In this document: one piece after another, positions 7,835-60,898 of the stretch
Numbering within the stretch: position 1 is the first letter of the stretch
Layout of the letters: each line of letters begins with the position of its first letter
Origin: a virus
Strand: one strand, 5' to 3'
Virus record (IMG/VR): IMGVR_UViG_3300042887_003609
Span: 1 to 64,000 of that record
DNA length: 64,000 bases
The notes under the pieces: generated by a model
Databases searched by the model: none
Told to the model about the DNA's origin: nothing
Seen by the model: only the letters and a program-made list of their open reading frames with translations
Position numbers and translations under genes: made by a program

Positions 7835-8490
7835 AATGACTTTAACATTTCAATTAAACCAGGATGAGGATACACATCTGTTTTGTCAACTCTTACACTG
7901 TTGTGAGTGTAAACACCAGGTTCACCTTTAAGTGCTCTAGGTGTAACTTGCCAAATATCTTCATTATAATCTAAAGGAATATTATATCTATCATTCCATA
8001 ATAGCAATAATTCTTTAACTGATTTTATTTGAGCGTCAGTATAATTATGCCAATAAGTAAAATTTTTATATGGGGTATCAAGTTTAATTACTTGATCCTT
8101 TGGTACTTCTGAATTAACATATGTATAAAACTTACCATTTTTTTCAGTAAGCCAACCCCAATTACATATCTCTATACCTATAGAGATCTTATCTAAAGAT
8201 TGATAAGGCACTTTGTATTTAGTAAACACATCTTGTTTTAAACCTAAATGATAGGCCCAATGTTTGCTACTAAAACCTTGAACAATTTCACCATCTACAG
8301 AACCCTTTCCTGAAATTGCAACACAAGTAGCAATCTTATCAGCATTGGCATTCCAACCCTGGAATGTTCTTTGAGCACTTGAGTTACCTGCAGTGTGATG
8401 CAAATAAATTTGTTTTTTTGGATGCTCTTCTGCAATATATTGACTAGAAGAGAAATCTACTTTTGTGATTGGAGGTAGTGGGTATGCCAT
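7831..8490 (-). CDS. Endolysin, N-acetylmuramoyl-L-alanine amidase (Amidase_2)
   Basis: IYLHHTAG, WAYHLG, SIGIE, YTDAQI, THN...KTD zinc amidase motifs. Confidence 0.9.
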   Translation of the reverse strand: MAYPLPPITKVDFSSSQYIAEEHPKKQIYLHHTAGNSSAQRTFQGWNANADKIATCVAISGKGSVDGEIVQGFSSKHWAYHLGLKQDVFTKYKVPYQSLDKISIGIEICNWGWLTEKNGKFYTYVNSEVPKDQVIKLDTPYKNFTYWHNYTDAQIKSVKELLLLWNDRYNIPLDYNEDIWQVTPRALKGEPGVYTHNSVRVDKTDVYPHPGLIEMLKSL

Positions 8491-8867
8491 TAGTTAAGAG
8501 CTTTTAATATTTCAGCAAATGGAGCCGTTATTTTCATTTGTAAACCCGCTTCCCATCTTTTAGTTTCTTTACCTTCTTTATAAACAATTATTGTAGGAAG
8601 TGATTTTATTTTTAAATGTTCTTTTAATTTAGGATTTTTTTCTAAATCAATATAAATGTATTTTATGTTTTTAGGCATCTGAGGCATTTTATACTCATTT
8701 TGCTTATTCCATTCAGTATTAACTTGAACTAATGCAACAGGAACATGAACTTCTTTTGTAAATGTCATTGCTGAATGAGGTAAAGGTTGAGGTTGTGTAG
8801 ATTTTACAGAAACAAATCCTAAAGTACTAACCAATAATACCCCTAATGTAAATAAAGTCGCTTTCAT
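8490..8867 (-). CDS. Exported thioredoxin-fold protein lacking CxxC
   Basis: Signal-peptide-like N-terminus; NTEWN in place of WCxxC; IKSLPT cis-Pro loop; KEGKE. Confidence 0.7.
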   Translation of the reverse strand: MKATLFTLGVLLVSTLGFVSVKSTQPQPLPHSAMTFTKEVHVPVALVQVNTEWNKQNEYKMPQMPKNIKYIYIDLEKNPKLKEHLKIKSLPTIIVYKEGKETKRWEAGLQMKITAPFAEILKALN

Positions 8868-48367: not shown

Positions 48368-51300
48368 TTACCAAGAGTTTTCCGTTAATTCTACTTTAGC
48401 TACAACCTGCATAGTAAGAGTTCCTCCTCCCACATACGTAGGTGCTGTGAACACCATCGAAAGTTCTTGTGAAGCCCCCGCTGTATATGTCATCAATGCC
48501 GTACCCGTAATAGAGCCGTCACCTTGAGTACCACTTGTTCCTATTGCAGTAATTGATGAAGTTCCACCAACTCTCTTGAATCCAAAAGTATTTGTTTCAA
48601 CCATGTAATCACCTACGGTTACTCCCGTTGCAGTACCACTAATTGCAGTTACTACGGCAACCCATTTAACGGTAACATTCCATGCACGATTGCTGCCTTC
48701 GGGAATAATTAAGTTTGTAGTACCCGTTCCATCAAGAGATAGTGTTAGTGTAGTACCCGTAGTTACGGAAGCACTTCTTCTTCTTGATACTAATTGAGAT
48801 GCTTGAGAGTCACCTCTATTTAAAATTAAACTACCATTTGCATGAGCAATTTGACCATATAAGTATGTATCACTTTGTAATCCGAAAGTTATAGAATAAA
48901 CATTGCGTGTTGTACTATTTGTACCGAATGAATGACTATTGTTTGCTTGAGCGCTTGCCCCATTTCCAATAGCAATTGCATAATTAGCCGCACACCCAAT
49001 ACTATTTTGAAAACCTAAAGTAAAATTTCTAATTCCACTGCTTGAGATTGTATTGTTATGCCCATAGGCTGCACTGTTTTCAGAAGATACTGTATTTTCC
49101 AATCCAAATGATGCACTCTCATTTCCACTAACTAAACTTCCCATAAAAGACGCGCTGTTGCGTGCATTTGCCCTACTATTACACCCTGCAGAAAATGAAC
49201 CATTCCCATTAGCCGTATTTAATGTTCCTCCAGCAATAGAAGCATAACCACCAATTGCAGTGTTTAAATATCCACCTCCAACAAATGAATAAACACCACT
49301 TGATGTGTTATAAACTCCCCCAACAATAGCACTTCTACATCCAGTCGCACTATTATTTGCACCGCCACCAACAAATGCTGTATGACAAGTCGCACAATTA
49401 TCTTGACCTCCTGATACCGTACTTTGTAAACCAATAGCCTTATTGTTTCTACCTCCACCAATTGTACTAAATACTTGTGTAGCACAGTTATTATTACCTC
49501 CACCAACAGTTGCCGCTAAATCACACGCTATATTTTCATAACCGCCTCCAACAAATGAAGAAGTACCCGTAGCCAAGTTGTTGCAACCTCCACCTATGAA
49601 TGCTGATATACAAGCGCAATTGGAAAATCCTCCCGCTATGGATGAATATGCACCTAATGCTCTGTTTCGTTCGCCTCCTCCAATAGAAGAATAAATACCA
49701 CAAGTTGCATTACTACGACCACCTCCTATAATAGTATTATCACCAATACTACTATTATTATTCCCTCCACCAATAAATGATGAACCACCCGACACAACAT
49801 TGCCTTTGCCTGAACCTAAAGCAGAATATGCACCACTTACAGAATTTGAATCTCCACCGAGAACAGCGGAATATACACCAGTAGCACCATTTCTAAATCC
49901 ACCAACAACAGATGCTAACCATCCTGCACCATTTTCCTGACCTCCACCTACAAACGCTCTTCCAAGCCCTGATGCAACATTACACACCCCACCTACTACT
50001 ACAGAACAATCGGTTGTTGCACAATTTCCACGTCCTCCACCAACAAAAGACGCATATCCTGTTGCTTGGTTACCACATCCACCAACTACACTTGAATAAA
50101 CATTAGTAGCGCAGTTGTTTTGCCCTCCACCTACTAAAGTAAAATTACAAGTTGCTTGATTTTGTTGACCACCTACAATAGCACTTGTTCTTCCCGAAGA
50201 TAAATTAGTTTGTCCTGCACCAACAAATGAGTAATTACCACTTGAAGTATTTCCATTACCCGCTACAATACCTGAATATTGACCACTTGCAGAATTTGAT
50301 GTTCCTCCAACTACAACAGACTTTAAAACACTTGCGTTGTTTAGGTTTCCTCCAACTACAACTGAACCATTACCACTTGCAGTATTAGATGCACCACCAA
50401 CCACAATTGAAATATATCCACTTGCACTATTTTGTCTACCCCCAGATATTGTGGAATAAGATGCAGTTGTACTATTTGACAAGCCTCCTAATATAGATGA
50501 AAAATATCCACTTGCAGTGTTTGAACTTCCTCCAACTACAATTGCTCTACTATTGCTTGCATTATTTAAACATCCACTACCAACAAATGAACAAGCACCC
50601 GTAGCCAAGTTGTTAGAGCCACCACCAATGAATGCCGATGTACAAGCGCAGTTAGAGAATCCACCCGCTACAACGGAATATGAGCCTAATGCACGGTTAA
50701 GTTCTCCACCTAAAATTGAAGAACAAGTACAACTTGCCGTATTGGATGCTCCACCTCCAATGAAAGAACGAGTTGCACTTGCCGTGTTTGAACTACCACT
50801 ACCTATAAATGAATTACACCCACTTGCATTATTACCTCTACCGCCACCAACAAATGCATATAAATTACTTGCCGAGTTAATTCTTCCTCCTGCTACTGTG
50901 GCAGCATTTCCACTCGTTGAATTAGCACTTCCACCACCAATAACTCCATATAATGAACTATTTGAATTACTATTACCTCCACTTATAGTTGATACTGAAC
51001 CACTTGCACAGTTACTTGAACCACCACCTATAAATGAACCAGCACCACTTGCAACATTGTTATTGCCACCACCTATAAAAGACCCATAAGTAGTTGCTCT
51101 ATTTCCACAACCACCTACAACAGATGAATAAGTTGAAGTGGCACAATTAGATTGACCACCGCCAACAATTCCAAAGTTGCCTTGAGAAATATTATATTCT
51201 CCTCCACCAAGATATGAAGCAAATCCTGTAGCACAGTTTATATGCCCCGCACCAATTCCTGAATACCACTCGGTTGCCTTCATGTTTTCACCACCTGAAA

Positions 51301-52147
51301 TGGTTGAATAACAACCTGAAGCAGTGTTTCTTTGTCCACCACTTACGGTAGCAAGAAATCCCGCTTTATTACAATATCCACCAGAAACCGTTGAAAGTAA
51401 ATCTAATGCCGAATTACAAGCACCATTTCCAACAAAACTTGCCGTTCCAAGAGCGCAGTTATTTAAACCACCACCTATTGAAGCATAAAGACCTATAGAT
51501 TTATTTGCAGAACCTCCTAAAATTGAAGAGTAGCATCCCGATGAAATGTTATTTATACCCGCTCCTACAAATGCTCCATCACCACTTGCACAGTTATTCT
51601 GACCACCAAGTACAGCAGAATAATTACCTAATGCCGTATTACCTACATCTGATCTTTGTGTAGAAAGTAAACCAAGACCTTCTTCATATACACCTCCACC
51701 ACCAACAGTAGTCCATTCAGTTCCATCCCAACTGTTTATAATAAACTCATCAGTGTTATAAATCATTAAACCAATTGCAGGAGATACAATAGCATCTCTT
51801 TGAGCAACGGTCATCTTTGGAAATAATACTCCTTTAGTTGTAGATGAAATTTCTAATATAGCAGATGCATCATTAGCTGAAGAATCTCCAACTTTTAATG
51901 GACCTGAAATTGCTGTTTTGTCAATAGCTAAAAATAATTGTGCTAAATTTCCATCAGGATCCTCTAATGCTCTTAGAGTTGTAGACATAGGACCAGAACC
52001 TGCTAACTGCAGATAGTCCCCGTAAATTGTTGAATTAATTGCATCAACTAAAGCATTCAAATGTCCAAACTTAACAGCACCTAATTGGTCACCTTGTTTA
52101 AGATATGGATCTGGACTTTGAGGAATAAACCTTTGTAATTTTGCCAT
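48368..52147 (-). CDS. Tail fibre/adhesin-like protein A with about 15-aa Gly-rich repeats
   Basis: Dozens of AxGxxSxVGGGxxNx repeats (YadA-head-like beta-roll); N-terminal SAILEISSTTKGVLFPKMT...GLMIYNTD module; C-terminal beta domain. Confidence 0.8.
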   Translation of the reverse strand: MAKLQRFIPQSPDPYLKQGDQLGAVKFGHLNALVDAINSTIYGDYLQLAGSGPMSTTLRALEDPDGNLAQLFLAIDKTAISGPLKVGDSSANDASAILEISSTTKGVLFPKMTVAQRDAIVSPAIGLMIYNTDEFIINSWDGTEWTTVGGGGVYEEGLGLLSTQRSDVGNTALGNYSAVLGGQNNCASGDGAFVGAGINNISSGCYSSILGGSANKSIGLYASIGGGLNNCALGTASFVGNGACNSALDLLSTVSGGYCNKAGFLATVSGGQRNTASGCYSTISGGENMKATEWYSGIGAGHINCATGFASYLGGGEYNISQGNFGIVGGGQSNCATSTYSSVVGGCGNRATTYGSFIGGGNNNVASGAGSFIGGGSSNCASGSVSTISGGNSNSNSSLYGVIGGGSANSTSGNAATVAGGRINSASNLYAFVGGGRGNNASGCNSFIGSGSSNTASATRSFIGGGASNTASCTCSSILGGELNRALGSYSVVAGGFSNCACTSAFIGGGSNNLATGACSFVGSGCLNNASNSRAIVVGGSSNTASGYFSSILGGLSNSTTASYSTISGGRQNSASGYISIVVGGASNTASGNGSVVVGGNLNNASVLKSVVVGGTSNSASGQYSGIVAGNGNTSSGNYSFVGAGQTNLSSGRTSAIVGGQQNQATCNFTLVGGGQNNCATNVYSSVVGGCGNQATGYASFVGGGRGNCATTDCSVVVGGVCNVASGLGRAFVGGGQENGAGWLASVVGGFRNGATGVYSAVLGGDSNSVSGAYSALGSGKGNVVSGGSSFIGGGNNNSSIGDNTIIGGGRSNATCGIYSSIGGGERNRALGAYSSIAGGFSNCACISAFIGGGCNNLATGTSSFVGGGYENIACDLAATVGGGNNNCATQVFSTIGGGRNNKAIGLQSTVSGGQDNCATCHTAFVGGGANNSATGCRSAIVGGVYNTSSGVYSFVGGGYLNTAIGGYASIAGGTLNTANGNGSFSAGCNSRANARNSASFMGSLVSGNESASFGLENTVSSENSAAYGHNNTISSSGIRNFTLGFQNSIGCAANYAIAIGNGASAQANNSHSFGTNSTTRNVYSITFGLQSDTYLYGQIAHANGSLILNRGDSQASQLVSRRRSASVTTGTTLTLSLDGTGTTNLIIPEGSNRAWNVTVKWVAVVTAISGTATGVTVGDYMVETNTFGFKRVGGTSSITAIGTSGTQGDGSITGTALMTYTAGASQELSMVFTAPTYVGGGTLTMQVVAKVELTENSW

Positions 52148-52215: not shown

Positions 52216-52416
52216 TTATTTCAGTCTGATGTATTTATACCATACTCGTTCATGTATATAGTATAATACCATTTTGGTAATTAGTTCTACCCCACCAATT
52301 TTTAATCCGGTAGACATGTTACCTGTAATAATATACCCTAAGAGAATAGTATCAATTGTGCCTACTATTCTCCAGGTAATTGTTTTTAATATATGTCTTA
52401 GTTTGTCACTACTCAT
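52216..52416 (-). CDS. DUF2061-like small membrane protein
   Basis: RHILKTITWRIVGTIDT...ELITKMVLYYIHERVW signature. Confidence 0.88.
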   Translation of the reverse strand: MSSDKLRHILKTITWRIVGTIDTILLGYIITGNMSTGLKIGGVELITKMVLYYIHERVWYKYIRLK

Positions 52417-52760
52417 AAACCCATTTCTTTACGAATTTTTGTAGCAGATATTTCCTTAATATGATCAGGTACTTCTATTTGTTCTACCTTGTATCCTACA
52501 TCTCTTCCATAGTACACACCTTCAATATCCGGAATAATCATTACTTTAACCTTATCTTCAGATATATAAGATTTAAGACTATCTTCAATCATTGCTTTAA
52601 CTTGTTCTGCAGTGAATGGATTTTTTTCATCAGTAGGTACATCTCTAATTGCAATTAGAACCGGAAGTTTTTTTTCTTCTAATAGAGTATCTACAAGATA
52701 CTTATGACCCCCATGAAAGATTTGGTATCTACCAATCATTAAACTATATTTATTCTTCAT
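52413..52760 (-). CDS. Small HxGH nucleotidyltransferase, putative minimal ATP sulfurylase
   Basis: GRYQIFHGGH, NPF, YGRDVGY, ISATKIR; co-operonic with APS kinase. Confidence 0.7.
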   Translation of the reverse strand: MKNKYSLMIGRYQIFHGGHKYLVDTLLEEKKLPVLIAIRDVPTDEKNPFTAEQVKAMIEDSLKSYISEDKVKVMIIPDIEGVYYGRDVGYKVEQIEVPDHIKEISATKIRKEMGL

Positions 52761-53511
52761 AATGCTTTTTATAAACCTTTGTACAAATATCTATAAATTC
52801 TTCTTGAGTAAAAACATTTTTCATGATATTTATTTTTTTATGCACCCATTGTAAATTACCAATACTGTAACCTTGATCTGAATTGATTCTGTCAAGAGAA
52901 GCGTTACCAACACCAAATTTATTTTTAGTAACATTGCTAAATACTAAATCCATTCCAGACAAGGCGCATTTTTTATTTTGATTTAAATAAAGCTCTTCTA
53001 AATACTCAATATCAATATCAAAAATAATGTTTCTACTTAAAGCTCCTCTTTTTATTGCTGTAAAAAAAGTTAAAGCTATATGTTCAGTACCTTTCCAATT
53101 TTTGTGAAAATTTCGTTTAGCGTGATGAATACAACCACAAGAAGTAGTATCACCTATTCTTAATGCTTTAGTACTAACTACTTTATCACTTCCACAATCA
53201 CATTTACAATACCAAGCTTTTCTACCATTTCTAGATAACGTTTGAGAAATAACTGTTAGTTTTCCAAATTTTTGATTTATTAAATTTACATTATTCACAA
53301 CTAAACATCCACAACTTGCATATTTACTATTTAATAAATAATTTCTACTTACATACTTTTCATTTCCACAATCACATTTACATTTAATAAGAGTAATATT
53401 ACTAACTTTTCCAGTTTTAGATGTTTGTTTACTACTTTTAAAATCATCTAAAACTAAAAGATTCCCAAATTTCTTACCAACAATTGACTTATCAAATGGA
53501 CGGTTTTTCAT
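52750..53511 (-). mobile_element. Free-standing HNH-type homing endonuclease
   Basis: Two KFGxLxV...CKCDCG...SCGC repeats; C-terminal CALSG...ASLDRINSDQGY...NLQWV...NIMK. Confidence 0.85.
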
Positions 53512-53962
53512 TTGTGTTTTTTATTAAATTAATTACTTTATATACAGATGCTAATTCTGGTTCTTCTGATGTGTTAATTACTAAATCAGCATCTTCCGGT
53601 ACATCAAAATCTAAAACATGAAAGTTTTCTCTACCTCTAAGATCTGTAGCATGATAATGTAGATAAACCCATTTTACATTTTCATTTAGTTTAGATAAAT
53701 ATTCTCTAGCTTCTTTATATGGATATACTAAAGTAACTATAACCAAATCTAATTCAAAAGATAAATAGTGAGCAATATCAGAAGCTGTTTTTAGATTACT
53801 AAGTCTTCCTTCCTTTGTATAACTTTTATTGTTAAACATTTGTCTTAGTATATCACCATCTATATGATCAAAGAGTAAACCCCGGTCATTTAAATCAGCT
53901 TTTAATAAATGAGCTATTGTTGACTTACCAGAATGGGGTTGTCCAAATAATACTAATATCAT
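53492..53962 (-). CDS. cysC: Adenylyl-sulfate (APS) kinase
   Basis: P-loop GQPHSGKST, IDGDILR, YTKEGR, PY...R, FDVP. Confidence 0.85.
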   Translation of the reverse strand: MILVLFGQPHSGKSTIAHLLKADLNDRGLLFDHIDGDILRQMFNNKSYTKEGRLSNLKTASDIAHYLSFELDLVIVTLVYPYKEAREYLSKLNENVKWVYLHYHATDLRGRENFHVLDFDVPEDADLVINTSEEPELASVYKVINLIKNTNEKPSI

Positions 53963-54777
53963 TTTGTATATCTAAAATATTGATTGTACCATTGGAAGTT
54001 ATCCCAAATCCAGTTAGTAACATCTTTACCCAAAATAGTTTTAGCTTGAGAAGGTACAGGTTCTAATCTTGTTCTAATAACATGATCACCATATATACCA
54101 TATACACTATCATCTTCTTGAGTAATCTGAGGAATATTATCAAAGTCATGCTTATACTGAGGTACACCTAAGTACTCATATATCTTACGCATTTCTTCAT
54201 CTGGATATAAACATAAATCTTCAAACTTTACAAAGTGGATATGCTTATCAATACCCTGTCTGATAATTTCATTTAACCTTTCAACGGCCATTCCTACAGG
54301 TTGAGATGCTAACCAAGCATCAACTCTTTTAGGAGTTGTAGTACCTCTCATTTCAGCATGACTAACAATAGGATCAGTTTTATCTTGATTCTTTCTAAAG
54401 TTCTTTTCCATAGAAGCAATGATATCTCTCATATCTCTAACCATACAAATAATTTTTGGTTGTGGATAAAAGCTATTTAAAAAATCATAGTGTATACCCC
54501 AGCCACGTGATTTATCTATAACATATTTTTTATCTGTAATAGAATTAAAGAATCCTTCTACACCTTCTTTACAAAAACCTAAGAAAGCATCTTTCATTAG
54601 TTGATGATCCTGAGCTTTAAACTCAGGAGAATCTGTATAGTTTGCTCTTGCTGCAAATACTAATTCTAAAACACCACTAGTAGGTGTTACATAAAAATCT
54701 GGGTTTTGACCAAGTATATTTTGTAATAATGTACTTCCACTTCTTGGTAAAGATGAGTTAAAAAATATTTTTTCCAT
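53959..54777 (-). CDS. PAPS-dependent sulfotransferase
   Basis: 5'-PSB loop LPRSGSTLL, DKSRGW, 3'-PB motif VRD...IIAS, KFEDL. Confidence 0.92.
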   Translation of the reverse strand: MEKIFFNSSLPRSGSTLLQNILGQNPDFYVTPTSGVLELVFAARANYTDSPEFKAQDHQLMKDAFLGFCKEGVEGFFNSITDKKYVIDKSRGWGIHYDFLNSFYPQPKIICMVRDMRDIIASMEKNFRKNQDKTDPIVSHAEMRGTTTPKRVDAWLASQPVGMAVERLNEIIRQGIDKHIHFVKFEDLCLYPDEEMRKIYEYLGVPQYKHDFDNIPQITQEDDSVYGIYGDHVIRTRLEPVPSQAKTILGKDVTNWIWDNFQWYNQYFRYTK

Positions 54778-54778
54778 A

Positions 54779-55654
54779 TTAGATTACTTCTAATGCTTTA
54801 ATAATGTCTTGTGAATTAAAAATCTCTTTTTCACTATGATAAGGAAACTCTAATGGATCTCCAATGATATTGAATTTTCCTAAGTATGCATTTCTCAGTT
54901 CAGGTTTCTTTGTAAAAAGATTAGCTTCAATGTTAGTGTGAGTGTCATATCCAAATACACCTTTTTTATTAGCTACCCAACAAACTACTGATGGTAATAA
55001 TAGTGCAGCAGCAGCATGTTGTGCAAATGAATCAATTAATAATCTCTTATCACTCATCATTAATAATACACAAAGTGATCTAAAATTATCAGATACTGTA
55101 ATTGCATTTTTTAATTCCGGTTGATCTTCTCTACGGATATGTACAACATTATGTGTACCTTTAAAATGATCTACTACATCTTGTGCTACTGCATACGGCA
55201 GATCTCTAGCCCAAGAGTATTTTACTTCCTGGTTAGGAGCACCACCATTTGTTTGTAAAGTAAGAATAGGTTTATCAGATCTGTATTTAGCTGAGAAAAA
55301 TTCAAGTTCTCTTGCTGTTAGATATAATTTTGGATATTCACCATTATACTGATATCCAAACATTTTGCACCAGGTTTTTAATAAATGCTCTGTACCTTGT
55401 ATATGAGCTACCTCTAAATAAGGATTATGTGCATGTATAATACAATCTTTATCTTCTATAAACTCTTCATAAAAATAAGATTGTTGTCCAAATCCATATG
55501 ATCTATCTACATTTGGATTGTTTAAAAAAACATCTGGATACCCAGATACTACAATTAATTTTGCTTCCGGGTGATGATTTTTAATACATTCACATACTGC
55601 AGTGGCCATTATACACTTTCCAAGACCACCATCAATTTGAAATACTATATTCAT
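54779..55654 (-). CDS. GT-B glycosyltransferase (GT9-like)
   Basis: GGLGKCIMAT, VFLNNPNVD, IDSFAQHAAAAL. Confidence 0.8.
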   Translation of the reverse strand: MNIVFQIDGGLGKCIMATAVCECIKNHHPEAKLIVVSGYPDVFLNNPNVDRSYGFGQQSYFYEEFIEDKDCIIHAHNPYLEVAHIQGTEHLLKTWCKMFGYQYNGEYPKLYLTARELEFFSAKYRSDKPILTLQTNGGAPNQEVKYSWARDLPYAVAQDVVDHFKGTHNVVHIRREDQPELKNAITVSDNFRSLCVLLMMSDKRLLIDSFAQHAAAALLLPSVVCWVANKKGVFGYDTHTNIEANLFTKKPELRNAYLGKFNIIGDPLEFPYHSEKEIFNSQDIIKALEVI

Positions 55655-55667: not shown

Positions 55668-55701
55668 ATAAAAAAACCCTGAGAAATTAATCCCAGGGTT
55701 T
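55668..55701 (-). terminator. Intrinsic terminator after fibre B operon
   Basis: AAACCCTGGGA-TTAATT-TCTCAGGGTTT followed by T-run on minus strand. Confidence 0.8.
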
Positions 55702-56107: not shown

Positions 56108-59100
56108 TTATGTAACAATTTTTAAAGTACCACCATCTGACCAAACTTCACCACTTGATAATCCAGCACTTGAAGTTGGAATATTAGTGATTACAAGTTT
56201 ATTTACGTGGAATGCACACTCTACGTTTGCATTTATTCCACAACCAACCACACTTGAGAAGTTAGCCGCAGCGGTATTACCTACACCACCGAGAACTACA
56301 GAATATAATGCAGATGCCGTGTTAACACAACCACCCACAACTACACCATAAGCACCTTGAGCAGTGTTGCACGCTCCACCACCGACAAATCCACTACAAC
56401 CATTAACGGTATTGCTAAATCCACCAAGTAATGAACCATAAGGGAATGAAACCACGTTTCCGCAACCTCCACCTAAAGTTCCACAATCAGCCGTTACTTG
56501 ATTTAAAATACCACCACCCAAGAACGCTCTTGTACCGTCTATGGTGTTTTGTCTACCTCCTCCCATGAAGGATTGGTTTTTATTACCACCAATGATGTTT
56601 AGGAATCCACTACCAATTGAACTTTCTTGTGCAAATCCATTGATGCCGTTACATCCTCCACCGACAATAATATTTCCCGCACCACATACGTAGTTTTGGT
56701 ATCCACCAACTATTAACGCTCCTTGACCTACCAAGCAGTTGTTTCTACCACCACCTATAAATGATTCAACTCCCACAGCACAGTTAGAGAATCCACCCGC
56801 TACGGCTGAATAATTTCCTAATGCACGGTTGAGTTCTCCCCCACCTACTATTGAAGCACAAGCACACGCAATATTTCTAACCCCACCAATAATAGATGAA
56901 CTATAACCACTTGCTGTATTTCTACTACCACCCCCAACAGTTGCATCATTACGTGTAGCACAATTTGAATAACCACCGCTTACGGTAGTAGAATAATTGC
57001 TCGCAACATTTCCATATCCTCCACCTACGAATGCACGGAGAATACCGCTTGCTATATTTGAATTACCCCCACCAACAAAATTATCTCCTCCACTTACCGT
57101 ATTGTTTCCGCCTCCACCAATAAATCCTCTATATCCACTTACGGTATTACAACTTCCACCTACTAATGAAGAACAATTGCCACTTACTACGTTTCTACAC
57201 CCACCACCAACAAAAGACCAACCACCCGTAGCACAGTTATTTTGTCCCGCAGTTACGGCACTATAAGAACCCGCTGCAATATTATTTTCTCCACCACCTA
57301 TAAATGATGTAGTTGCAATTGCTCTATTTAAATAACCACCACCAATAAAAGAATTTATTGCTGTTATACTGTTTCCATTACCCGAACCTATAAATGAGTA
57401 TGCTCCGCTTGCACTAATAGAATTTATAAATCCTGCTCCTATTCCCGACCTATAAACAGGTGATGAAATGGTATTTGCAAATCCAGTTCCAATAAAATTA
57501 TTTCCTCCACTAACAGAGTTTGCATATCCAGTAACAATAGCAGAACCAATACCACTTACATTGTTCCCGTCGCCACCTAAAACAGAAGATGAATTAGCAC
57601 TTGAAGTGTTTCCAACACCCCCACCAACAAATGACCCATATCCCGTTGCCTTATTTCCACACCCTCCTACGACAGAAGAATAGATAGAAGTAGCACAGTT
57701 AAACGCTCCTCCTACTACGGAGGAGTTATCACCAATAGCACAATTGCAAGTACCCGCTCCAACTAATGCCGCTATAGCACAAGAACGATTTAATCGACCA
57801 CCAACAACTACCGAACATTCTGACTCTGCTCTATTCAATGAGCCGCCTAAAACTGATGAAAAATTTGCAGTAGCACAATTTGAAGTGCCACCCACTACAT
57901 TACTTGAATTACCAGTTGATTGGTTGCCATTCCCAAAAGCAACTGAACTAAAACCACTTGCAATAACAGTTGTACCAAAGGCAACAGAACCATTATTTGT
58001 AGAACTATTACCAGTTCCACCTACCATAGAATCTTGACCCGAAGAAATATTACCGCATCCACCAATAACGACGGCTCTATTACCACAAGCAATATTTCCT
58101 GTTCCCGCTCCTATAAAATTTCCAAAAAAGTTTGCAATATTATTGCTTCCACCACCAATAAAAGAACAAACTCCTTGACTACAAATTAAATTATTTAATC
58201 CTCCTGCTATGTTTGAAAAACAATTACAAGCACAGTTATTAACACCACCACCAACAAAACTACCATACCCTAATGCCTTGTTTCCACACCCTCCTACGAC
58301 AGAAGAATACACATTAGTAGCACAGTTAAACGCTCCACCTACTACTGATGACCATGAATTTGCGGCTTGGTTTCCAAAACCTCCACCTACAGTTGCTCCA
58401 ACGCCGAATGCTCCATTACCACATCCACCACCTATTACGGCATAACAAGTTGAATCACTTGTGTAGTTTCCACTACCACTACCCATAAATGAATATGCAC
58501 CCGCATTAACATTGTTTTGTCCTCCAACAACCGCTGAATAATATCTTGCTCCAATTCGGTTTCCTTCTCCACCTACTATGACTCCATATTGAGAAATATC
58601 TCTTACACAGTTATTAAATCCACCTCCAATAACCGCTCTGTAACCAAAACTACAATTTGAACATCCTCCGCCCATAAATGCTTGAGTTCCACTTGCTACG
58701 TTACTTGAACCTCCTCCTACTACGGATGCAGACCCACTTGCAGAATTTAAAATTCCACCCGCAACTACCGCATAATCTGTAGCACAGTTTTGTTGACCTC
58801 CCGCAACGGTAGAAGAAATACCCGAAGCAAGGTTAAGAACACCACCACCTACGGTAGACCTTAAAGGACCTGATGCAGTATTACTACACCCACCACCAAT
58901 TGTTGATTCACATCCACTTGCAATGTTTAATGTTCCTCCACCAACTGCTGAATAGTTACCTCCTGCACGATTACATAGACCTCCTAAAATAGACGAATAT
59001 TGATTACATGATAAGTTGTATCTACCTGCTCCAATCATAGAAAAATAATTGGATGCAGTGTTAAATTGTCCACCACCAATGGTCGTATACCTACCTATAC

Positions 59101-60898
59101 AAGTTACGTTCCTGTATCCACCACTAATTGTTCCACCGTATTGATCATTACAATTTTGATAACCTCCTGCTATAGTAGCATAAAATCCTGAATTTGTATT
59201 ACCTATTCCACCACCTATTACTAAACCATTTGCTCCAGAACCTATTAAATTATTTAAACCACCTCCAATAAAACTTTGACAAGCACAAACTCTATTAAAG
59301 TTACCACCTGCAACTGTTGAATAACTTCCAACGGCAGAGTTGCCTGTTCCACCTGATACGGTAGAAATAAAACCTGAAGAAATATTACCAATTCCACCAC
59401 CTACAACAGAAGCATATCCTGATGTTAAGTTTCCACAACCACCTACTACACTTGAATAGACACTTGTAGCACAGTTACCAAAACCACCACCTATTAATGC
59501 CCATGAAGCCGTATTACATACACGGTTAGATTGACCACCTCCTAAAATTGAGTAAGCACCACTATTTGTATTGCTTGCTCCCGATATAATTCCACTTGCA
59601 AGACCAATAACGCAGTTAGTTGCTCCCGCCCCTATAAATCCATAAGAACCACTTGCCGTATTAAACTTTCCACTAACTACACTATCTCCTATTCCACAAG
59701 CCCTATTTGTACATCCACCTCCAACAAATGTATGTGATGCAACGGAACAGTTAGATTGACCACCTACTACGGATGACCAAGAGTTTGTTGCTTGGTTAGA
59801 TTGACCACCACCTATAGTTGAAGTAGTTCCACTTGCAGTATTACTACAACCACCACCTACTGTTGAAAGACATCCACTTGCATTATTTAGAATCCCTCCT
59901 GCAATAGTTGAAGTATTACCACTTGCAGTGTTTGAGTCACCTCCTCCAATAAATGAATTACTTGCGGTTAAAGCAATTGTATTACATCTTCCTCCTACAA
60001 TACTTTGATAGTTTCCACTTATGGTTTGATTTCTACCACCTCCAATAAATCCTACATTACCCAACGCTCTGTTACAAAATCCGTGCGTAATAACATTACA
60101 ACCTCCACCGCTTATACAGTTCTGTTGTCCGCTTACTATAGATGATAAATATCCGCAATTTATATTTCCAATACCCGAAAGAATACCTGAATATGTAGTG
60201 GTTGATAGGTTATTTACACCTCCACCAATAAAACTCGCATAACCGCTTGCTGTATTGCCACAACCACCAACGATTGCAGAATAAACTCCCGTTGCACAGT
60301 TGTTTTGTCCACCAAGTGAAGCGGAGTAATTACCCAATGCCGTGTTACCAACAGCACATCTTAAAGATGAACATGCCCCTGTACCAAGAACAATTACTTC
60401 TTGTGCAAGACTAGATGCAGATCTTGATTTAATCAAACCTGTAGCTGGATCACGTACAAGTACATCATCTACTGATGTATCTACAACCGGAGTACTAAAA
60501 ATATTTAAATTATTTACATAACTTGTACAAGCTGTATTAGCAGTGATATCACTACCCATGATAAATGTATCATCTAAACCATTTGTACTATTATTTCTTC
60601 CGCCTAAAATAGCAGAATAATCACCTGACGCAACTTGAGATGCAAGTGTTCTTGACATTTGTAAATCAACTGCATATTGTCCTCTGGCATCTCCGCCTAC
60701 TGCTGTAGCATCAGGACAAGCTGCAATAATTGCACCTGTTCCTAATGTTAAAAGAACCAGATTCATATCTGTGTACGTAGTAGAACTAACCGCTAAAAAT
60801 GCTGATGGTTGAATAGTATCACATGTACCATCAACAAAATTAACTAGACCTCCGCCACCACTACCACCTAATGAGAAAAACTTGCCGAATGTTGCCAT
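56108..60898 (-). CDS. Tail fibre/adhesin-like protein B with Gly/Cys-rich repeats of about 15 aa
   Basis: Long repeat array as in fibre A; N-terminal GGDARGQYAVDLQ; C-terminal PTSSAGLSSGEVWSDGGTLKIV. Confidence 0.8.
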   Translation of the reverse strand: MATFGKFFSLGGSGGGGLVNFVDGTCDTIQPSAFLAVSSTTYTDMNLVLLTLGTGAIIAACPDATAVGGDARGQYAVDLQMSRTLASQVASGDYSAILGGRNNSTNGLDDTFIMGSDITANTACTSYVNNLNIFSTPVVDTSVDDVLVRDPATGLIKSRSASSLAQEVIVLGTGACSSLRCAVGNTALGNYSASLGGQNNCATGVYSAIVGGCGNTASGYASFIGGGVNNLSTTTYSGILSGIGNINCGYLSSIVSGQQNCISGGGCNVITHGFCNRALGNVGFIGGGRNQTISGNYQSIVGGRCNTIALTASNSFIGGGDSNTASGNTSTIAGGILNNASGCLSTVGGGCSNTASGTTSTIGGGQSNQATNSWSSVVGGQSNCSVASHTFVGGGCTNRACGIGDSVVSGKFNTASGSYGFIGAGATNCVIGLASGIISGASNTNSGAYSILGGGQSNRVCNTASWALIGGGFGNCATSVYSSVVGGCGNLTSGYASVVGGGIGNISSGFISTVSGGTGNSAVGSYSTVAGGNFNRVCACQSFIGGGLNNLIGSGANGLVIGGGIGNTNSGFYATIAGGYQNCNDQYGGTISGGYRNVTCIGRYTTIGGGQFNTASNYFSMIGAGRYNLSCNQYSSILGGLCNRAGGNYSAVGGGTLNIASGCESTIGGGCSNTASGPLRSTVGGGVLNLASGISSTVAGGQQNCATDYAVVAGGILNSASGSASVVGGGSSNVASGTQAFMGGGCSNCSFGYRAVIGGGFNNCVRDISQYGVIVGGEGNRIGARYYSAVVGGQNNVNAGAYSFMGSGSGNYTSDSTCYAVIGGGCGNGAFGVGATVGGGFGNQAANSWSSVVGGAFNCATNVYSSVVGGCGNKALGYGSFVGGGVNNCACNCFSNIAGGLNNLICSQGVCSFIGGGSNNIANFFGNFIGAGTGNIACGNRAVVIGGCGNISSGQDSMVGGTGNSSTNNGSVAFGTTVIASGFSSVAFGNGNQSTGNSSNVVGGTSNCATANFSSVLGGSLNRAESECSVVVGGRLNRSCAIAALVGAGTCNCAIGDNSSVVGGAFNCATSIYSSVVGGCGNKATGYGSFVGGGVGNTSSANSSSVLGGDGNNVSGIGSAIVTGYANSVSGGNNFIGTGFANTISSPVYRSGIGAGFINSISASGAYSFIGSGNGNSITAINSFIGGGYLNRAIATTSFIGGGENNIAAGSYSAVTAGQNNCATGGWSFVGGGCRNVVSGNCSSLVGGSCNTVSGYRGFIGGGGNNTVSGGDNFVGGGNSNIASGILRAFVGGGYGNVASNYSTTVSGGYSNCATRNDATVGGGSRNTASGYSSSIIGGVRNIACACASIVGGGELNRALGNYSAVAGGFSNCAVGVESFIGGGRNNCLVGQGALIVGGYQNYVCGAGNIIVGGGCNGINGFAQESSIGSGFLNIIGGNKNQSFMGGGRQNTIDGTRAFLGGGILNQVTADCGTLGGGCGNVVSFPYGSLLGGFSNTVNGCSGFVGGGACNTAQGAYGVVVGGCVNTASALYSVVLGGVGNTAAANFSSVVGCGINANVECAFHVNKLVITNIPTSSAGLSSGEVWSDGGTLKIVT

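Follow-up and report, generated by a model that had tools for sequence, protein, structure and literature searches.

A 115-residue HxGH nucleotidyltransferase associated with APS kinase as a candidate third class of ATP sulfurylase

Introduction

To our knowledge, the activation of sulfate is currently thought to depend on one of two enzymes, Sat or CysDN, and the marine lineages SAR11, SAR406 and MGIII are considered incapable of using sulfate. Sat (PF01747; structures 1v47, 1jhd and 8a8g) has the fold of the HxxH nucleotidyltransferase superfamily and is found fused with or next to APS kinase, as in Sat-CysC and in the metazoan PAPS synthase. CysDN, a GTP-coupled ATP sulfurylase that also stands beside cysC, consists of the PAPS-reductase-like CysD and the GTPase CysN. 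In the pair formed by PPAT (CoaD) and dephospho-CoA kinase, adenylyl transfer is followed by 3'-phosphorylation by a P-loop kinase, an order of steps that parallels the one proposed below.

What, then, would a nucleotidyltransferase of 115 residues do in a phage genome close to an APS-kinase-like protein and a sulfotransferase? A first-pass annotation of such a gene had taken its product for a stripped catalytic core of Sat that fills the step missing beside cysC. The functional part of this proposal gains strong support from gene fusions, gene neighbourhood and phyletic complementarity, whereas the derivation from Sat does not hold. The nucleotidyltransferase family concerned, called NTase in the following, is not described in the literature that was searched on DUF2061, on fusions of ATP sulfurylase, APS kinase or cytidylyltransferase, on phage sulfotransferases and PAPS, and on non-orthologous sulfate adenylyltransferases.

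The Cassette and Its Surroundings

The window analysed, a stretch of 64,000 nucleotides, comes from an IMG/VR virus record of 74.5 kb with an estimated completeness of 61%, and within these 74.5 kb no match to Sat or CysD was found. Six genes on the minus strand follow a terminator-like hairpin, separated by gaps of 1, -4, -20, -11 and -4 nucleotides (Table 1). A GT9-like glycosyltransferase reading of the first of them, made in the first pass, could not be confirmed, as the 291-aa protein gave no Pfam match at E<=0.01 and no match to PDB sequences.

Table 1. Features of the cassette; positions refer to the window.
Feature	Position	Strand	Evidence or remark
Terminator-like hairpin	55674..55701	-	11-pair stem then T run; just upstream of cassette
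291-aa protein, first gene of cassette	54779..55654	-	no family match
272-aa sulfotransferase, presumed PAPS consumer	53959..54777	-	PF13469 4e-22, PF00685 1e-14
156-aa short APS-kinase-like P-loop kinase	53492..53962	-	PF01583 1.1e-14
253-aa HNH endonuclease, between kinase and NTase genes	52750..53511	-	phrog_374 3e-31
115-aa HxGH (HIGH-signature) nucleotidyltransferase P0001, candidate mini ATP sulfurylase	52413..52760	-	ORF, translation, PF01467 3e-5
66-aa DUF2061 small membrane protein, recurrent module partner	52216..52416	-	PF09834 7e-24

By its sequence, the kinase of the window is APS-kinase-like, a divergent short form. It reaches 53 bits on the apsK model TIGR00455 with only the first ~100 positions matched, a score that lies under the cut-off of 138.7 and does not establish apsK membership. 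The alignment of its family keeps the motifs GQPxSGKT (P-loop), IDGDxLR, GR..N and SLVxPY, which parallel LDGDxxR, DRxEN and ISPY of the canonical CysC fusions.

The HNH endonuclease gene overlaps its neighbours by 20 and 11 nucleotides and constitutes an insertion of ~740 nucleotides as compared to a collinear relative (L136), in which the kinase and NTase genes abut. An HNH gene is found at the same kinase/NTase junction in another phage (L141), and HNH and NTase are joined in single ORFs of 321-324 aa in P0129, P0208 and P0222, which suggests repeated homing into this junction. Within the HNH gene, 198 nucleotides (window positions 52793-52990) are 69% identical to the Bacteroides crAss-like phages PhiCrAssBcn14-18; this is the sole similarity of the cassette to deposited phages at the DNA level.

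On both sides the cassette is flanked by large proteins with repeats rich in Gly, Ser, Asn and Cys (48368-52147 and 56108-60898, both on the minus strand; 1259 and 1596 aa), which look like fibre proteins and could be targets of modification. A 62.6-kb contig of a Flavobacteriaceae MAG (L039) carries sulfotransferase, kinase, NTase, DUF2061 and the 291-aa protein (E of 3e-84 and 8e-97), differing from the window in that the HNH gene is absent and the gene for the 291-aa protein comes last. Either this contig stems from a phage or prophage that was binned with the MAG, or it hints at a flavobacterial host.

The Nucleotidyltransferase Family

The ORF of the 115-aa protein begins with ATG, and its translation contains the motifs that the first-pass annotation had read from it, namely Q13-I-F-H16-G-G-H19, G85-R86-D87 and I104-S-A-T-K-I-R110; the HxGH and ISxTxxR motifs among them occur throughout the whole nucleotidyltransferase superfamily. 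Since 3628 relatives of similar length were found at E<=1e-3, and 880 representatives at 50% identity with E<=1e-10 among 1.84 billion, the gene is real and not a chance ORF. In an alignment of 29 sequences G10, R11, Q13, H16, G18, H19, V34, R39, D44, N47 and P48 are invariant, as are G85, R86, V88, G89, Y90, P98, I104, S105, A106 and R110 in the C-terminal half. K46 is nearly invariant and T107 is kept in at least 90% of the sequences. The third position of 'GRD', residue 87, is variable (D, G, E or N), the family motif being YGR[DGEN]VGY.

Public databases name members of this family variously 'NMN adenylyltransferase', 'cytidyltransferase-like', 'PPAT', 'FAD synthase' or 'kinase', and the JGI name is NMNAT. 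In the ESM Atlas the structurally nearest clusters are 'cytidylyltransferase-like' ones and fusions with APS kinase, and no new name emerged from them.

Where in the superfamily does the NTase belong? In a Pfam scan at E<=1 PF01467 (CTP_transf_like) matched with 24.5 bits against a cut-off of 21 (E of 3e-5), apart from one chance match nothing else was found, and PF01747 was absent. In NCBIfam, NadM and archaeal NMNAT match best, scoring 37-40 bits where the cut-offs are 127-409. These matches cover residues 1-92 only, the best one residues 6-80, and the protein falls under the cut-offs for full-length NMNAT (39.8 bits against 127 for TIGR01527, 36.7 against 181.2 for NF002243). A profile of the family searched against PDB sequences retrieved only NadM and archaeal NMNAT (E of 1e-7 to 4e-5), with PPAT at E 0.16; Sat was not found in this search.

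The AF2 model of the protein (pLDDT 88.3) shows a complete small HxGH nucleotidyltransferase core with a Rossmann-like nucleotide-binding fold. With VIA-align, PPAT and archaeal NMNAT are tied at Z-scores of 10.2-10.7 (103-110 aligned residues, rmsd 2.6-3.5), and the alignment extends over model residues 3-115 and chain residues 1 to about 140. Foldseek places NadM and NMNAT on top and Sat from rank 24 down with ~75 aligned residues, and Sat is missing among the best 50 VIA rows, an absence from a list that is no proof of differing folds. Sequence and fold alike place the 115-aa protein, in shortened form, within the NadM/PPAT-like branch of HxGH nucleotidyltransferases. Its modelled core is complete, and R11, H16, H19, S105 and R110 are invariant.

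Several comparisons speak against a stripped Sat core. PF01747 matches within the NTase family are weak and confined to 4 of 148 representatives (best E of 6e-6), and a profile-profile alignment (hhalign) with 13 Sat sequences is also weak (probability 32%, E of 5e-4). In this low-confidence alignment HxxH and ISxTxxR coincide, and the GRDHAG of Sat comes to lie opposite IPDIEG, ~8 residues upstream of the GRD of the family. Eleven Sat sequences of Chitinophagaceae read QTRNPIHRAH at the place where the 115-aa protein has G-R-Y-Q-I-F-H-G-G-H, with HxxH alone in common. In these alignments the residues with which Sat holds sulfate (QxRN, GRDHAG) are not recognisably conserved in the NTase family.

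Fusions and Gene Neighbourhood

Fusions with APS kinase exist by the hundreds; the first pass had suggested a search for such fusions with CysC. Among the relatives of the NTase, 927 are longer, and most of these consist of an APS_kinase and an NTase domain with a total length of 240-370 aa. Both domain orders are seen, and 43 of the 148 representatives at 50% identity contain an APS_kinase domain. The kinases of P0157, P0209, P0151 and of a Chitinophagaceae neighbour score 185-264 bits on TIGR00455 and can, by the curated cut-off of 138.7, be counted as bona fide CysC domains. DUF2061 takes part in fusions as well, with the NTase in P0147 and P0218 and with CysC in Chitinophagaceae, where the DUF2061-CysC gene lies directly upstream of the NTase gene. 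Furthermore, a 555-aa protein of Rhizobium sp. BK376 consists of Sulfotransfer_2, APS-kinase-like and NTase domains encoded in a single ORF (L058:8711-10378, plus strand). This triple fusion amounts to a whole sulfation pathway in one protein, in an isolate genome that also has CysD.

The same kinase-NTase fusion is represented by phrog_10255, labelled 'kinase'; cultured phages that have it are Sano and Salvo of Xylella and DLP_6 of Stenotrophomonas. In Sano (L001) and DLP_6 (L002) no sulfotransferase is annotated in the 5 kb to each side of the fusion. In Sano a 'cysteine dioxygenase' gene lies ~3 kb upstream of the fusion. A complex prediction for kinase and NTase gave a score of 0.00, which is counted neither for nor against an interaction.

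Linkage to the kinase, in the absence of which the first pass would have abandoned its proposal, is the rule. Of 80 viral loci, 74 have the kinase next to the NTase or fused with it, as do most of 80 cellular ones. DUF2061 is found in 38 of the viral loci, an adjoining sulfotransferase in 22 and relatives of the 291-aa protein in 20, the latter gene standing beside the NTase in a single one of the cellular loci. These cellular loci span Marinimicrobia, Chitinophagaceae, Pelagibacteraceae, Patescibacteria, Omnitrophota, Planctomycetota, MGIII and other archaea, and across the lineages the neighbours of the module include sulfotransferases of Pfam families 1/3, 2 and 5. The idea that DUF2061 accompanies ordinary cysC-cysD/sat operons was dropped, as it was not found within ~7 kb of such canonical operons in 8 control Chitinophagaceae; DUF2061 appears to be specific to the NTase-kinase module.

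In Chitinophagaceae, the DUF2061-CysC fusion (L007:9303-10001) with the NTase next to it recurs in 11 further syntenic loci. The flanks of this conserved island, which may serve the synthesis of a sulfated product, encode an Asp/Arg beta-hydroxylase-like protein, a weakly sulfotransferase-like protein, a 2OG-Fe(II) oxygenase and tandem proteins with a phage-tail-collar domain. A Marinimicrobia single-cell genome (L033) has two convergent NTase copies side by side (7961-8314 on the plus and 8391-8741 on the minus strand).

Taken with the kinases of its relatives that pass the apsK cut-off, the NTase would form a two-enzyme module resembling PAPS synthase, the kinase of the window being short, divergent and separated by the HNH gene.

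Phyletic Complementarity

If the NTase is an ATP sulfurylase, how are the known ones distributed in the genomes that carry the module? Among 55 such genomes Sat is present in 2 and a strong CysD match in 10, and 43 have neither, counts to be read with the qualification that many of these genomes are incomplete MAGs or SAGs, so that some absences may be gaps. The 43 include a complete Pelagibacter genome of 1.3 Mb and nine Chitinophagaceae genomes of 2.3-4.7 Mb. As a control served those 55 of 150 randomly sampled Chitinophagaceae that have CysC and do not have the module; the module occurred in the seed genome alone, and the sample was therefore used as control and not for co-occurrence statistics. 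In the control genomes CysD was found in 41 and Sat in 13, one or the other in 54 of the 55, and in the single exception cysC is located at the end of a contig. Fisher's exact test for module versus control gives p = 4e-18 overall and p = 4e-10 within Chitinophagaceae, where the nine module genomes are syntenic and may represent one evolutionary event.

In addition, each of the five module genomes tested encodes a canonical CoaD and a canonical NadD, and the roles of PPAT and NMNAT are therefore already filled. Of the pathway slots considered in module genomes, that of ATP sulfurylase alone was found vacant. Sulfotransferases, which consume PAPS, are present in Pelagibacteraceae, Marinimicrobia and MGIII genomes that are free of Sat and CysD.

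Proposed Function

We consider it likely that the 115-aa protein is a mini ATP sulfurylase orthologous to neither Sat nor CysDN. The NTase would transfer AMP from ATP onto sulfate, yielding APS and PPi, the neighbouring short APS-kinase-like enzyme would convert APS to PAPS, and the adjacent sulfotransferase would use the PAPS. As the equilibrium of APS formation is unfavourable, the coupled kinase and the pyrophosphatase of the cell would have to draw the reaction forward, as happens with Sat. Sulfate could be held by R39, D44, K46, N47, R86 and Y90, which are specific to the family and invariant or nearly so. DUF2061 probably tethers the pair of NTase and kinase to the membrane or assists in some other way. 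The fold, the intact catalytic motifs, the linkage to APS kinase, DUF2061 and sulfotransferases, and the lack of Sat and CysD in most module genomes are observed, whereas we infer that sulfate accepts the AMP, that NTase and kinase are coupled, and what DUF2061 contributes.

With somewhat less assurance, yet still on the favourable side, we would generalize this to a third class of ATP sulfurylase that evolved independently. Its members of ~115 aa would have arisen in the NadM/PPAT-like branch and form a compact PAPS synthase together with APS kinase and DUF2061. In SAR11, SAR406, some Chitinophagaceae, CPR bacteria and marine archaea no other enzyme would activate sulfate, and phages would spread this one within a sulfation cassette.

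Can other activities account for the same observations? It could be imagined that the NTase adenylylates a small acceptor other than sulfate, such as selenate, another oxyanion or an acid, and that the adenylate then receives a phosphate at its 3'-OH from the CysC-like kinase, in analogy to PPAT and dephospho-CoA kinase. The tie with PPAT in the fold comparison (Z of 10.7) and the absence of the sulfate-binding motifs of Sat would agree with such a reaction, as would the fact that many partner kinases, that of the window included, are short and divergent and fail to reach the apsK cut-off. However, the curated cut-off identifies some of the kinases that are fused or adjacent as bona fide apsK, sulfotransferases recur as neighbours and fusion partners, and the vacant slot found in module genomes is that of ATP sulfurylase; on balance we regard another acceptor as rather unlikely. 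Quite improbable is a role as accessory or regulatory subunit of APS kinase that binds ATP, APS or PAPS and makes no APS itself. The NTase is very small, a phage could draw APS from the CysDN of its host, and Sat or CysD does occur in 12 of the 55 module genomes, but throughout the family R11 and the catalytic residues of the HxGH and ISxTxxR motifs do not vary, and most module genomes, one of them complete, are without another source of APS.

The public annotations point to a reduced NMN/NaMN adenylyltransferase for NAD salvage, in line with the best sequence matches to NadM and archaeal NMNAT, the common GRxQPxHxGH and NPFT motifs, the JGI name and the frequent occurrence of NadM-Nudix in phages. 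Nevertheless, such a function has very little probability, given a score far under every NMNAT cut-off (39.8 bits versus 127, residues 6-80 only), the loss of ~53 residues from the NMNAT core and tail, an APS kinase as partner instead of Nudix or Nampt, and a canonical NadD in five of five module genomes. We attach equally little weight to a sugar-1-phosphate nucleotidyltransferase similar to the C-terminal domain of HldE, which would supply a nucleotide sugar to the 291-aa putative glycosyltransferase encoded in the same cassette. Sugar-phosphate nucleotidyltransferases such as HldE and TagD do have a small domain of the PF01467 type, but the 291-aa protein is without a confirmed glycosyltransferase match, and its gene lies beside the NTase in 20 of 80 viral and 1 of 80 cellular loci as compared to 74 of 80 viral loci for the kinase. 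Against the preferred reading as a non-orthologous ATP sulfurylase count the nearest kin in sequence and fold, which are NMNAT and PPAT and not Sat, the want of recognisable counterparts to the sulfate-holding residues of Sat, the kinase of the window with its score far under the apsK cut-off, the presence of Sat or CysD in 12 module genomes, and the fusions of Sano and DLP_6 with no annotated sulfotransferase within 5 kb.

Implications

A third and tiny ATP sulfurylase, if confirmed, would alter the interpretation of sulfur metabolism in genome sequences and would explain the orphan cysC and sulfotransferase genes of abundant marine lineages (SAR11, SAR406, MGIII). Thousands of annotations as 'NMN adenylyltransferase', 'cytidylyltransferase' or 'kinase' would have to be corrected. 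Phages would then carry a self-sufficient supply of PAPS for sulfating a surface or virion component, and an ATP sulfurylase of such small size could serve in the regeneration of PAPS in biocatalysis. Sano and DLP_6, being cultured phages, are ready experimental systems for the kinase-NTase fusion.

Comparison With Known Systems

The closest relatives in sequence are NadM and archaeal NMNAT (M. jannaschii 1f9a and M. thermautotrophicus 1ej2; NadM-Nudix 2qjo and 2qjt), with a profile E-value of 1e-7 and 33% identity to 1f9a. They have the GRxQPxHxGH, NPFT and ISxTxIR motifs in common with the NTase family, and their fold matches the model over residues 3-115 with Z-scores of 10.3-10.4. As compared to the M. 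jannaschii NMNAT (1f9a), the NTase family is ~53 residues shorter. It lacks ~21 residues between strand 3 and the GY...ISxT region, family positions 80-88 corresponding to about residues 81-109 of 1f9a, and ~32 C-terminal residues that form the C-terminal helices, the 115-aa protein ending at about residue 136-141 of NMNAT chains of 164-169 residues. The absent internal segment is presumably the one that contacts nicotinamide in NMNAT-NAD structures, and the loss of these segments would fit a much smaller acceptor. Moreover, the partners of the NTase are APS kinase, DUF2061 and sulfotransferases, not NAD genes. CoaD is a comparably minimal HxGH nucleotidyltransferase and equally close in fold (Z of 10.5-10.7), but the identity is just 14-20% with a profile E-value of 0.16, and the partner kinase of the NTase differs from dephospho-CoA kinase in being of the APS-kinase type.

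With CysDN the NTase would have the reaction in common, and the pattern in which CysDN and Sat exclude each other beside cysC is also that of the NTase module. The folds, however, belong to unrelated families, and the module has no GTPase partner. Sat shares with the NTase the superfamily fold, in which HxxH and (I/L)S(A/G)TxxR align, and the same kind of fusion with or neighbourhood to APS kinase. It differs in length, ~390 versus 115 aa, and in the PUA-like domain, which is absent from the NTase. Should the NTase prove to be an ATP sulfurylase, it would stand as a family of its own and not as a reduced Sat. The reaction and the fold superfamily are known ones, and what would be new is the NTase family and its small size in this role.
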